Below are positions 27,013 to 46,769 of a DNA stretch of 64,000 nucleotides, in pieces. The translations under genes were made by a program, and so were the position numbers. Positions within the stretch are counted from its first letter, which is position 1; every line of letters starts with the position of its first letter. The DNA is taken from sequence record ON528742; one strand, 5' to 3'. The notes beneath the pieces are model-generated. The model made no database searches. It had not been told where the DNA came from and saw only the letters and a program-made list of their open reading frames with translations. This DNA is from Shigella phage ESh32.

Positions 27013-27036
27013 TGCTTTATAAATTTTTGGTAAAAT
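27013..27036 (+). promoter_or_regulatory. candidate MotA-dependent middle promoter
   Basis: TGCTTTA box, 11 nt, then TAAAAT, upstream of alpha-gt. Confidence 0.4.
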
Positions 27037-43587: not shown

Positions 43588-43770
43588 ATGGAATTGGTAA
43601 AGGTAGTTTTTATGGGGTGGTTTAAGAATGAAAGCATGTTTACTAAAGAAACCACAATGATGAAAGATGACGTTCAATGGGCTACTACTCAGTATGCTGA
43701 AGTTAATAAAGCATTAGTTAAAGCTTTCATTGATGACAAGAAAGTATGTGAAGTGGATTGCCGAGGATAA
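43588..43770 (+). CDS. dmd: Dmd antitoxin (discriminator of mRNA degradation)
   Basis: 60 aa MELVKVVFMGWFKNESMF...; GAGGAG RBS; position next to gene 41. Confidence 0.7.
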   Translation: MELVKVVFMGWFKNESMFTKETTMMKDDVQWATTQYAEVNKALVKAFIDDKKVCEVDCRG

Positions 43771-43771
43771 T

Positions 43772-44029
43772 ATGCATATTGTTTTATTTAAACCTACTCC
43801 GTATAACGTCAGGAAAAATACACAATTTAAGGCACTTATTGCGGATACGTGGGAATTGGTGTTAGATATTCCAGCAGAAGAAAGTCCTCCATTTGGTCGA
43901 GTGGAATTTATTAAGTTTGCTGTACGTCCTACGAAGCGACAGATTCGTCAATGCAAAAGATACTTTCGTAAAATCGTCAAGTTAGAGAAACAGTTTGTAA
44001 CATGTGATTATGCAGAAGTTTTAAAATAA
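43772..44029 (+). CDS. hypothetical protein
   Basis: ORF 43730..44029; ATG at 43772. Confidence 0.5.
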   Translation: MHIVLFKPTPYNVRKNTQFKALIADTWELVLDIPAEESPPFGRVEFIKFAVRPTKRQIRQCKRYFRKIVKLEKQFVTCDYAEVLK

Positions 44030-44089: not shown

Positions 44090-44383
44090 ATGAAAAAATT
44101 TGTTTTTGCTGCAATTTTTGCTTTAGCTTCTTGTGCTGCTCAGCCTGCTATGGCAGGTTATGATAAAGATTTGTGTGAATGGTCTATGACTGCGGATCAG
44201 ACTGAAGTTGAAACTCAGATTGAAGCAGATATTATGAATATCGTTGAGCGTGATCGCCCTGAAATGAAAGCTGAAGTACAAAAACAGCTTAAGTCTGGTG
44301 GTGTAATGCAGTATAATTATGTTTTGTATTGCGATAAAAACTTTAATAACAAAAATATCGTAACTGAAATCACAGGTGAATAA
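44090..44383 (+). CDS. sp: spackle periplasmic protein Sp
   Basis: 97 aa with signal peptide; position between 41 and 61. Confidence 0.7.
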   Translation: MKKFVFAAIFALASCAAQPAMAGYDKDLCEWSMTADQTEVETQIEADIMNIVERDRPEMKAEVQKQLKSGGVMQYNYVLYCDKNFNNKNIVTEITGE

Positions 44384-44384
44384 T

Positions 44385-45017
44385 ATGATTTATTATATGC
44401 ACAAAAATCCACCGTTTAAATACGGTAAATTTCCTGATGCACAATGTTATAATATAACGCCTGATGAAAATAACCGTGGATATCTTATTGGCACAATTTT
44501 TGTAATTGTTAAAGATAACGAAATCGTTGCCTGGGCAGATTTTAAAGGTACAACACATGATGTTAATCCGGTGCCTTTCACATATTACAATATAATGGAT
44601 TTGGCATATGATTATAATTGGTTTAATCATGACACGTTGGCTCATATTGAAGGTGTAGGATTTGACATCTCTTATTCTAGCTACTCGTTGTGTCCTATGA
44701 GTCGGGCTCATAAAGAACCTGAATATTTTTCATTTAGGAAACGTGTAAACTTTAAACGCAACACAGAGTATGTCGGTGGAATCTTTGTTAAAGATAATCG
44801 AATTATTCGTATTAATTATCCTTTGAGCGTTAGTCAAAAAGATATTGATGTTGATTTAGATTTCACTGAAAATAATATTAATCATATTGCTTCTGTGTAT
44901 TTTGGTATCGATCACAAAATTGTAATATGTGGATATGAATTACCGTTTGAAGAACAGTCTAAAGTAAATGTTTCTATTGACGATCAAATTTTTAATGCTT
45001 TTATGAATAAAGGTTAA
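44385..45017 (+). CDS. hypothetical protein (shares C-terminal motif with next gene)
   Basis: ORF 44376..45017 (GTG 44376); ends ...SIDDQIFNAFMNKG. Confidence 0.55.
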   Translation: MIYYMHKNPPFKYGKFPDAQCYNITPDENNRGYLIGTIFVIVKDNEIVAWADFKGTTHDVNPVPFTYYNIMDLAYDYNWFNHDTLAHIEGVGFDISYSSYSLCPMSRAHKEPEYFSFRKRVNFKRNTEYVGGIFVKDNRIIRINYPLSVSQKDIDVDLDFTENNINHIASVYFGIDHKIVICGYELPFEEQSKVNVSIDDQIFNAFMNKG

Positions 45018-45018
45018 T

Positions 45019-45375
45019 ATGTATAGTTCTGAATTTTCATATTTAAAAATGGAAAAAATTTCATACGATTTTATAGATGAAAAGGTTTATTATAGTTTCC
45101 ATGAACCACGTTTTAATAGTGAGGTTGGGTTTATTGTAGTAAAAGACAATTTCATTTTAAAGATATATTCGGCATTAAAGGATTTTCACTACGAAAATAT
45201 TAACCTAAAATTTGATAAAGAAAACGTTCGTAATTGTGCAGTAACAATTACAGGAAATAAAGGTACGTGTGTTATGTTATCTGATGAAATTAATGATTTG
45301 CTAAATGATGCCGAAAAGGTTGCTATTCCATCTATTGATGACCAAATTTTTAATGCTTTTATGAATAGAGGTTAA
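45019..45375 (+). CDS. hypothetical protein (shares C-terminal motif with previous gene)
   Basis: 118 aa ending ...SIDDQIFNAFMNRG. Confidence 0.55.
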   Translation: MYSSEFSYLKMEKISYDFIDEKVYYSFHEPRFNSEVGFIVVKDNFILKIYSALKDFHYENINLKFDKENVRNCAVTITGNKGTCVMLSDEINDLLNDAEKVAIPSIDDQIFNAFMNRG

Positions 45376-45376
45376 T

Positions 45377-45541
45377 ATGAAAACATATAAAGAATTTATT
45401 AAAGAAGATATGGTAGCTGGAGATTCAGGTGGTAATCCTGAAAATATCTCTACTGGAACAACATCAGGTGCTGTAGTAAATAAAGGTCCTGAACAGATTC
45501 CTAAAAAGAAAAAAGAGGAATCTAAAGAAAAAGAAGAGTAA
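45377..45541 (+). CDS. possible lysine-rich small protein
   Basis: 54 codons read from sequence. Confidence 0.4.
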   Translation: MKTYKEFIKEDMVAGDSGGNPENISTGTTSGAVVNKGPEQIPKKKKEESKEKEE

Positions 45542-45543
45542 AA

Positions 45544-46572
45544 ATGTCATCAATACCTTGGATTGATAATGAGTTTGCATATCGTGCATTAGCTCATTTA
45601 CCTAAATTCACACAAGTAAATAATAGTTCAACTTTTAAATTACGGTTTAGATGCCCTGTTTGTGGAGATTCAAAAACCGATCAGAATAAAGCTCGTGGAT
45701 GGTATTATGGTGATAATAATGAAGGAAATATTCATTGTTATAACTGTAACTATCATGCACCAATCGGAATATATTTAAAGGAGTTTGAACCCGATTTATA
45801 TCGTGAGTATATCTTTGAAATAAGAAAAGAAAAAGGTAAAAGTCGTCCAGTAGAAAAACCTAAAGAACTTCCTAAACAACCTGAGAAGAAAATAATTAAA
45901 TCTCTTCCGTCATGTGTTAGATTAGATAAACTGGCGGAAGACCATCCAATTATAAAATATGTAAAAGCTCGTTGTATTCCAAAGGATAAATGGAAATATC
46001 TTTGGTTTACAACCGAATGGCCTAAATTAGTTAATAGCATAGCACCGGGAACATACAAAAAGGAAATTTCTGAGCCTCGTCTTGTTATTCCAATTTATAA
46101 TGCTAACGGAAAAGCTGAGTCTTTTCAAGGACGTGCATTAAAGAAAGATGCTCCTCAAAAATATATCACCATTAAAGCTTATCCTGAGGCAACAAAAATT
46201 TACGGTGTTGAACGAGTTAAAGATGGTGATGTATATGTTCTAGAAGGACCTATAGATTCACTTTTTATTGAAAATGGTATAGCTATTACAGGTGGTCAAT
46301 TAGACCTAGAAGTTGTTCCATTTAAAGATAGACGAGTGTGGGTTTTAGATAATGAACCTCGTCACCCTGACACTATCAAACGAATGACTAAATTAGTTGA
46401 TGCAGGAGAAAGGGTTATGTTTTGGGATAAATCTCCCTGGAAATCAAAAGATGTCAATGATATGATTAGAAAGGAAGGTGCAACCCCTGAACAAATTATG
46501 GAATATATGAAAAATAATATTGCCCAGGGGTTAATGGCTAAAATGCGGTTATCTAAATATGCTAAGATTTAA
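45544..46572 (+). CDS. 61: DNA primase gp61
   Basis: 342 aa; zinc ribbon CPVCGDS...HCYNC; TOPRIM-like acidic residues. Confidence 0.9.
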   Translation: MSSIPWIDNEFAYRALAHLPKFTQVNNSSTFKLRFRCPVCGDSKTDQNKARGWYYGDNNEGNIHCYNCNYHAPIGIYLKEFEPDLYREYIFEIRKEKGKSRPVEKPKELPKQPEKKIIKSLPSCVRLDKLAEDHPIIKYVKARCIPKDKWKYLWFTTEWPKLVNSIAPGTYKKEISEPRLVIPIYNANGKAESFQGRALKKDAPQKYITIKAYPEATKIYGVERVKDGDVYVLEGPIDSLFIENGIAITGGQLDLEVVPFKDRRVWVLDNEPRHPDTIKRMTKLVDAGERVMFWDKSPWKSKDVNDMIRKEGATPEQIMEYMKNNIAQGLMAKMRLSKYAKI

Positions 46573-46769
46573 ATCAACCCAACTAAAGCAAATGCTAAAT
46601 CTACAAATGTATCAAGAGTAACTACTGGAATATTAACACCATGCGCAATTGCAATTGGTGATAAAATAAAGTTCCAGAGTAAAATTCCTACCATAGCAGA
46701 AATAGTAAAAGCTATACGTTTCTTATTACCTTTTATGGCATTAACAAGTGCCATTAATTTTTGTACCAT
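46569..46769 (-). CDS. candidate small membrane protein on the opposite strand
   Basis: 66-aa ORF, two hydrophobic helices; AAGGAGG 4 nt upstream of ATG on the minus strand. Confidence 0.4.
   Translation of the reverse strand: MVQKLMALVNAIKGNKKRIAFTISAMVGILLWNFILSPIAIAHGVNIPVVTLDTFVDLAFALVGLI

Follow-up and report, generated by a model that had tools for sequence, protein, structure and literature searches.

A conserved C-terminal tail shared by tandem AdfA-family genes of a T4-like phage, and its apparent use as a recombination joint

Why should two adjacent phage genes end in almost the same DNA when the sequences upstream of those ends differ so much? The question is raised by a 64,000-nucleotide stretch of Shigella phage ESh32 (record ON528742), referred to here as the window, in which gene 61.2 (adfA) is followed by a shorter gene of the RB32ORF033c type (ORF033c below) and both encoded proteins terminate in SIDDQIFNAFMN(K/R)G. 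A preliminary description, made from the letters alone, had noted the near-identity over about 45 nt and proposed either a recombination junction or a conserved C-terminal interaction peptide. These alternatives are each partly right and are mutually compatible. What that description missed is that both genes are paralogous, from a named anti-defence family (AdfA/gp61.2). In the explanation that we regard as very probable, the genes are tandem AdfA paralogs whose tail DNA has been kept alike by selection on the peptide, by signals at the gene junction and by recombination between the two copies.

The similarity was delimited by a repeat finder as a 49-nt direct repeat (Table 1), with 46 of 49 positions identical (94%) and a start-to-start spacing of 358 nt. 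This confirmed the near-identity of both 3′ ends, with the same three mismatches as originally listed (GAC/GAT, GAT/GAC and AAA/AGA), but the repeat reaches 4 nt beyond the limit first given, through TAA-T-ATG. Each copy thus takes in the final 14 codons of a gene with its stop codon (TAA), one T and then the ATG that starts the gene downstream. Both open reading frames (ORFs) are present in the ORF list and agree with the RB51 annotation of 61.2 and RB32ORF033c. Given the local base composition, the probability of at least 46 matches in 49 by chance is ∼1e-21 per pair and ∼5e-16 over all pairs in 1 kb. An assembly artefact is ruled out as well: on comparison with related phages the identical arrangement recurs in ∼157 independent phage records. 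The window belongs to Tequatrovirus, its nearest relatives being RB51, RB68 and AR1 (98.3% identity over 1.6 kb), and its ORFs and the RB51 annotation give the gene order 41, dmd, 61.4, sp, 61.2, RB32ORF033c, 61.1, 61.

The upstream parts, which had been described simply as different, are strongly diverged but not unrelated. The bodies of the two proteins have 27–30% amino acid identity over ∼100 aligned codons, and the proportion of synonymous differences (pS), ∼0.7, is saturated. Both proteins score above the PF23813 gathering threshold of 27 bits, AdfA over the full profile and ORF033c only over the segment given in Table 1. The corresponding PHROGs, 3781 and 4122, are separate families that match each other, and the short gene is already annotated as ‘similar to gp61.2’ in the RB51 and RB32 records. 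The two genes are old, tandem AdfA-family paralogs, the short one corresponding approximately to the C-terminal half of AdfA and lacking its N-terminal ∼95 residues. The tail is therefore an inherited family sequence, not one grafted onto unrelated genes. Comparison of ORF033c with its T2 and Sf21 orthologs gave a ratio of the proportions of nonsynonymous (pN) and synonymous differences, pN/pS, of ∼0.2–0.4, and ORF033c is thus under purifying selection. The N-terminal half of AdfA gives a weak profile match to the AdfA-type domain (hhalign probability 44%, E 2e-4), which suggests that it is a degenerate copy of the C-terminal domain.

AdfA, anti-DarT factor A (LeRoux et al. 2022, as reported in PMC11257639 and PMC9391042), is a small protein whose binding neutralises DarT1, a DNA ADP-ribosyltransferase; His or Arg at residue 164 decides whether binding occurs, and His at RB69 position 164 is the DarT1-neutralising allele (PMC11257639). 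The window AdfA has His at the site equivalent to R164 of RB69 (NNINH, compared with NNINR in RB69-type proteins), and ORF033c has Asn at the residue aligned with 164. In the window, sp directly precedes the pair and the primase gene 61 lies downstream of it, within the dmd-tifA-sp-adfA anti-toxin island of T4-like phages.

How widely is the tail shared? A word-indexed search with ORF033c alone returned close relatives only, and the wider family came from an exhaustive hidden Markov model (HMM) search of 1.84e9 representative proteins, with only 5 true clusters, together with profile searches. The profile search of a larger collection gave 66 family proteins in three length classes, ∼118–125, ∼144–148 and ∼208–216 aa. 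The C-terminal motif DDQIFNAFM(N/K)(R/K)(G/D) is present in all 66 as well as in both window proteins; a few of the 66 depart from it, by no more than a single residue. In a 36-sequence alignment, six of the eight invariant columns fall in the tail, and identity in the globular parts goes down to 20–30%. No other part of the AdfA-family proteins is conserved as well as the tail. Every member examined lies directly downstream of sp and upstream of a primase gene, a synteny that covers Tequatrovirus, Mosigvirus-type, Dhakavirus-type and Gaprivervirus genomes and two metagenomic lineages, all T-even-like phages. Gaprivervirus VR25 again has two adjacent tail-bearing genes (145 and 119 aa), and orthologs of ORF033c in another genus (45–47% identity) again stand beside a tail-bearing gene. 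A search of 185,579 genomes of bacteria and archaea did not find the motif, and plasmids did not yield it either. Its use as a family criterion is proposed in this analysis, without published precedent, and no mention of ORF033c or of the motif was found in the searchable library. The motif is apparently undescribed and ORF033c is an uncharacterised member of a known family; the feature overall is of an ordinary kind rather than a new kind of system.

Is it the peptide or its DNA that is conserved? When the window ORF033c is compared with a distant homolog (locus L014), the 14-residue tails are identical and 7 of 7.3 synonymous sites differ. More generally, tails compared between genera have pS of 0.41–0.95 and pN of 0–0.09. 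An identical peptide with synonymous turnover between genera shows that it is the peptide, and not its DNA, that is under selection.

Paralogs within one genome look different. Their bodies have pS of 0.69–0.75 and amino acid identity of 0.27–0.30, and their tails have pS of only 0–0.28. The two window tails share 10 of 12 codons, compared with 6.6 of 12 predicted from the codon usage of the window (P = 0.037). In RB32 and in a second two-gene relative, L036, all 12 codons are identical, for which hand-multiplied per-codon values give a probability of ∼5e-4, and in PinkRuby the two tails are identical at 49 of 49 nt. Across Tequatrovirus, paralogous tails differ at 0–3 of 45 nt, and orthologous tails compared between genera differ at 5–7 of 45, even though orthologous bodies between genera are far more alike than paralogous bodies. 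The tails are thus ordered in the opposite way to the genes that carry them, which argues that the Tequatrovirus tails were homogenised at some point.

The strongest competing explanation is that peptide conservation is sufficient, the nucleotide identity being a by-product of an invariant peptide and the strong bias of T4-like phages towards A/T-ending codons, with no recombination between the copies. Every codon shared by the window tails is the preferred one, and the excess over the number expected from codon usage is marginal. Such a scheme would not, however, explain why up to 7 of 7.3 synonymous sites differ in distant lineages whose peptide and codon bias are unchanged, nor the complete codon identity in L036 and RB32 and the complete nucleotide identity in PinkRuby. 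It also fails to predict that paralogous tails should be closer than orthologous ones, or that indel boundaries should coincide exactly with repeat boundaries (see below). We consider it improbable, although it retains more credit than the other alternatives.

Several observations nonetheless weigh against homogenisation as we propose it. Codon bias accounts for much of the identity, and the window pair by itself departs from expectation only at the P value given above. Tails of the Gaprivervirus-like genomes are not homogenised, with 7–9 differences between paralogs and VR20, with 3, as the exception. The left–right tail distance in Tequatrovirus is 2.00 within genomes and 2.04 between genomes, and the compared genomes are related, hence not independent trials. 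Continuing within-genome gene conversion in Tequatrovirus is unsupported by these distances, the absence of differences in PinkRuby being a single example. Since the distance within genomes is no smaller than that between genomes, homogenisation may have been one old event, or may reflect exchange within the population at large, instead of conversion that goes on inside single genomes.

The VR20 tails (locus L019) differ at 3 of 45 nt, and those of its close relative VR25 (L004) at 7. The left copy in VR20 holds synonymous variants of the right copy (CAG, TTC) and its right copy holds variants of the left (GTT, AAG), a pattern that looks like a local conversion event.

More direct evidence that the repeat has served in recombination comes from the distribution of the two genes. 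Three arrangements exist: adfA only, as in T4; adfA with ORF033c, as in the window, RB51, RB32, Sf21, Shfl2 and PinkRuby; and ORF033c only, as in T2. In a collection of 50,697 phage records, the AdfA-specific N-terminal half is present in 486 and ORF033c in 336, 298 of them at at least 60% identity. Of the junctions, the two-gene one was found in 157 records and that of T2 type in 141, and their sum equals the 298 records with ORF033c at that identity; the adfA-only arrangement accounts for ∼329 records. T4 and the two-gene phage L036 carry the same adfA allele and are colinear except for one 358-bp indel, exactly one repeat period. The window-type allele is also found without ORF033c (L041–L043, AdfA 98% identical), so both adfA alleles occur with and without the second gene. 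These comparisons support the repeat as the boundary of a natural gene presence/absence polymorphism and hence as a probable recombination joint, at which each event may have been a deletion or an insertion. The junction suggested in the preliminary description stands to this extent, as the exact boundary of a 358-bp polymorphism and with Tequatrovirus tails closer than their age predicts.

The codon at which the copies differ in amino acid follows the arrangement. The tail carried the right-copy sequence (GATGAC...AGA, Arg) in 10 of 10 adfA-only genomes examined, and in 10 of 10 two-gene genomes the left copy had AAA (Lys). The prediction that clusters of Arg-tailed 210-aa AdfA should lack ORF033c held in three of three. 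This is the pattern that recombination between the two tails would produce. It could also arise if the Lys/Arg codon is selected as part of the site at which ribosomes bind for the gene downstream, a further point on the other side of the balance, but the right copy in PinkRuby has AAA and such tuning of the Lys/Arg codon is thus not obligatory.

The T2-type arrangement has a different origin. T2 keeps ∼14 nt of the adfA tail (TAGAGGTTAGTATG) in front of ORF033c, as its ribosome-binding site (L003 1440–1520, and in the 141 T2-type records), which argues that this arrangement descends from a two-gene ancestor through a nearly precise deletion of adfA. A TAG variant of the T2-type junction is present in Shfl2. 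T2 has been treated as naturally lacking an adfA homolog (PMC11257639); its short paralog, of 118 aa, is nevertheless positive for the Pfam AdfA profile and annotated as 61.2. The sp gene of T2 has a 1-nt insertion that alters its C-terminus. In another Tequatrovirus, BCH953P2 (L047 ∼1100–1130), a 1-nt deletion lies just past the ORF033c start (TATAGTTTGAA compared with TATAGTTCTGAA); this ORF033c is either a pseudogene or the product of a sequencing error.

The window adfA is itself a mosaic. Residues 1–110 (44385–44714) are 93.6% identical to AdfA of RB69 (Mosigvirus) and only ∼64% identical to T4 AdfA, and the 3′ two-thirds of the gene are >90% identical to T4 (loci L002 and L036 compared), which suggests allele exchange between genera.

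Could the DNA instead be held constant by a nucleotide-level signal? Candidates would be a signal for translational coupling, an RNA structure, or a middle promoter that depends on MotA (TGCTTTT, 12 nt, TAATAT). The consensus places the MotA box, (a/t)(a/t)TGCTT(t/c)A, ∼12 nt ahead of a −10 element, TAnnnT. The candidate in the repeat, AATGCTTTT followed after 12 nt by TAATAT, is imperfect, its final base being T rather than the A of TGCTTtA. Both copies fit a loosened pattern, TGCTT-N(12–14)-TAnnnT, that is enriched in the window (33 matches, 14.9 expected). The box is, however, broken in genomes that keep the peptide: TGCATTT in RB69-type phages, CGCTTTC in L015, and TGCCTT(T/C) in Gaprivervirus and Dhakavirus. 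The putative −10 element also overlaps the next start codon, and its transcript would therefore miss the start of that gene. The promoter resemblance is unconvincing and is kept as a minor possibility. Folding of the two repeat copies as RNA was no better than that of shuffled sequences (z = +2.1 and +0.1), Rfam gave no match in the repeat, no sigma-70 promoter or terminator was found within it, and the T4 GenBank records consulted annotate no promoter there. The final 13 nt (GAGGTTAATATG) fare better, being conserved as nucleotides in several genera with a ribosome-binding site/stop/start layout, but coupling can account for these ∼13 nt only and not for the preceding 36. As an account of the whole repeat, a nucleotide signal seems to us quite unlikely.

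The junction is better seen as one contributor among several. Its last 13 nt, (A/G)AGGTTAATATG, combine a Shine-Dalgarno sequence with stop and start codons in a layout that may reflect translational coupling and that probably adds constraint on the terminal R-G codons. Elsewhere in the window, matches to the MotA pattern include those at 27013, 31600, 32230, 46783 and 51108, and several sites with a full TGCTTTA box are probably real middle promoters.

A fresh scar (the 3′ end of adfA recently duplicated in part and in tandem, or a foreign cassette recently inserted, with tails identical because they are young) would account for near-identical copies directly flanking one gene-sized unit, but is very hard to reconcile with the saturation of the rest of that unit, which implies an old duplication, with the ORF033c orthologs beside a tail-bearing gene in another genus, or with variation in ORF033c of up to 26% inside Tequatrovirus (Sf21).

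In the explanation we favour, each protein has a globular domain that evolves fast, with two subdomains in AdfA but a single one in ORF033c; a flexible linker then leads to the peptide DDQIFNAFM(N/K)(R/K)G. Three causes would act together on the tail DNA. The first is strong purifying selection on the peptide, which most likely acts as a tethered docking or neutralising helix for a constant partner, with the variable domain and its His164 specificity site selecting the toxin. The second would be the double duty of the last 13 nt, which contain the stop codon and also give the next gene its ribosome-binding site and start codon. The third would be homologous recombination between the two tail copies, by which the 358-bp ORF033c cassette could be lost or gained at the 49-nt joint, giving the T4-type and RB51-type arrangements, and by which the right-hand tail would be copied onto adfA. 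The T2-type arrangement would have arisen separately, through its almost precise adfA deletion. The paralogy, the invariance of the motif, selection at the level of the peptide, indel boundaries that are exact and tails with little synonymous divergence in Tequatrovirus are direct observations; the docking function and its partner, the direction of single events and the coupling role of the junction are what we infer from them.

What might the tail do? We know of no solved structure of AdfA. AlphaFold2 models based on family alignments had a mean predicted local distance difference test (pLDDT) score of 78.6 for AdfA and 83.4 for ORF033c, with residues 11–90 of the latter above 90. In both proteins the tail was modelled as a 10-residue helix (pLDDT 51–58) following a linker with values below 50, and it appears to lie outside the folded core. 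Such a position, together with a sequence that stays invariant while the attached domains have become barely recognisable as related, points to a tethered docking or active peptide. We lean towards the view that the tail would bind a constant partner, or be itself the active element, and that the variable domain with residue 164 picks the target. The partner might be a replication protein, of the phage or of the host, or else a surface conserved among DarT-type toxins. The peptide proposed in the preliminary description is indeed conserved; its interaction role is an extrapolation from a low-confidence helix on a flexible linker. On the opposite side, the hydrophobic moment of the tail helix equals that of shuffled sequences, so that it is not measurably amphipathic.

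A clamp-binding tail (gp45; SLDFL[FY] type) was also considered and rejected. The window gp43 ends in ASLDFLFG, and the AdfA tail SIDDQIFNAFMNRG shares with this only S-[IL]-D and an aromatic character; comparison with the C-termini of the window gp43 and gp55 gave no clamp-motif match. Structure comparison found no convincing likeness to the domain among solved or predicted structures outside the AdfA family.

A bolder version, which we regard as rather doubtful, is that a set of interchangeable toxin-recognition domains have in common the invariant tail, as a portable peptide for docking or as an effector, and that its DNA is also a joint at which T-even phages add, drop or swap these domains as cassettes in their anti-toxin island. 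The family would then be a counter-defence system of constant region and variable domain, in which the short paralogs (ORF033c and the ∼146-aa class) neutralise DarT variants or other toxins missed by full-length AdfA. If this were true, T2, described as lacking adfA, would still hold an active family member.

Table 1. Positions in the window of the repeat copies, their junction and the genes that they join
Feature	Position	Strand	Content or context	Basis
Left 49-nt repeat copy	44973..45021	+	Codons for SIDDQIFNAFMNKG, TAA, T, ATG of ORF033c	Sequence, repeat finder
Right 49-nt repeat copy	45331..45379	+	Codons for SIDDQIFNAFMNRG, TAA, T, ATG of 61.1	Sequence, repeat finder
One repeat period, 358 bp, missing from T4-type genomes	45022..45379	+		Alignment of T4, L036 and window; one-gene loci L040-L044
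Junction AAAGGTTAATATG	45009..45021	+	Shine-Dalgarno-like AAGG/AGGT, adfA stop, ORF033c start	Sequence; layout recurs at tail junctions of other genera
adfA (gene 61.2), anti-DarT factor A, 210 aa	44385..45017	+		Pfam PF23813 E 8.5e-138, 457 bits; PHROG 3781
RB32ORF033c-type gene, 118 aa	45019..45375	+	One domain and tail	PF23813 34.1 bits, profile positions 113-211; PHROG 4122
sp (spackle)	44090..44383	+	Upstream neighbour of every AdfA-family gene; 3′ junction GGTGAATAATATG like the tail junction	ORF list, RB51 annotation, synteny in L014-L017 and L040-L044
Gene 61.1, 54 aa	45377..45541	+	Downstream neighbour; start codon within right repeat copy	

Several features of the neighbourhood were noted in passing. 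A second paralog pair is found in the VR25 island, where two TifA/61.4-like genes (L004 707–1003 and 2159–2380) carry the motif RPTKRQIR, as does the window 61.4 (43730–44029). The product of gene 61.1 matches the C-terminal third of a 156-aa family, phrog_2086 (E 2.6e-16), and a distant relative (L014 3613–4077) has a 154-aa gene in the same slot, so that here again a short protein equals the C-terminus of a longer one. Between the primase gene 61 and gene 56, the minus strand of the window (46569–46769) encodes a 66-aa predicted membrane protein of the RB32ORF030w type; the equivalent position in T4 holds the dam methyltransferase gene. In a distant T4-like metagenomic phage, an HNH endonuclease gene (L015 871–1491) lies between the helicase gene 41 and dmd.

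AdfA is among the few known phage inhibitors of DarTG, and its deletion from T4 gives no phenotype. The findings are of modest interest, relevant to research on DarTG counter-defence, and do not overturn current understanding. The invariant, tethered C-terminal peptide is a concrete mutational target for the mode of action of AdfA. Many T-even phages hold a second, short family member and some, like T2, hold only that one, which alters the reading of adfA presence/absence tables in host-range and defence studies. The locus is also a clean natural case of a selected coding repeat that appears to serve as the joint for gain and loss of a cassette in a phage anti-toxin island.

How does this locus compare with known systems? 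The nearest is AdfA/gp61.2 itself. The first gene is an AdfA with His at the R164-equivalent site, the second passes PF23813 over the C-terminal half, and both follow sp; the second differs in its missing N-terminal region and in its Asn at aligned position 164. A looser analogy may be drawn with the orphan toxin/immunity cassettes of CDI and Rhs systems, in which a constant segment common to tandem genes with variable domains provides homology for cassette swap or deletion. The combination of a constant segment with variable functional domains in tandem genes is alike, but the constant part here consists of 14 residues at the C-terminus, where theirs is an N-terminal delivery region, AdfA proteins are phage anti-toxins and not toxins, and every copy forms a whole gene that has a start codon of its own. 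Type II antitoxins with disordered, toxin-binding C-terminal tails likewise combine a folded domain with a flexible C-terminal segment, predicted to be helical, in a toxin-neutralising binder. They differ in that the sole mapped specificity residue of AdfA (164) is in the globular domain, and contact between tail and DarT is hypothetical. The PeSL (promoter-early stem-loop) elements reported by Arbiol et al. in 2010 are said to be mobile regulatory cassettes of T4-type phages, short repeats at gene boundaries for which modular shuffling in hyperplastic regions was reportedly proposed; the present repeat, in contrast, is coding and has neither a sigma-70 promoter nor a stem-loop. Another parallel is the recombination of T4, in which short homologies drive amplification and deletion in the same dmd-tifA island, as shown experimentally by Srikant et al. 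2022 (PMC9391042), where Wu et al. 1991 is cited. There, as here, direct repeats lead to the gain or loss of gene-sized units, but those events arose in the laboratory at homologies of 2–10 bp, whereas the present repeat is 49 nt long, coding and kept by selection on the peptide that it encodes, and the polymorphism that it bounds is a natural one, spread over 157 two-gene, 141 T2-type and ∼329 adfA-only records.

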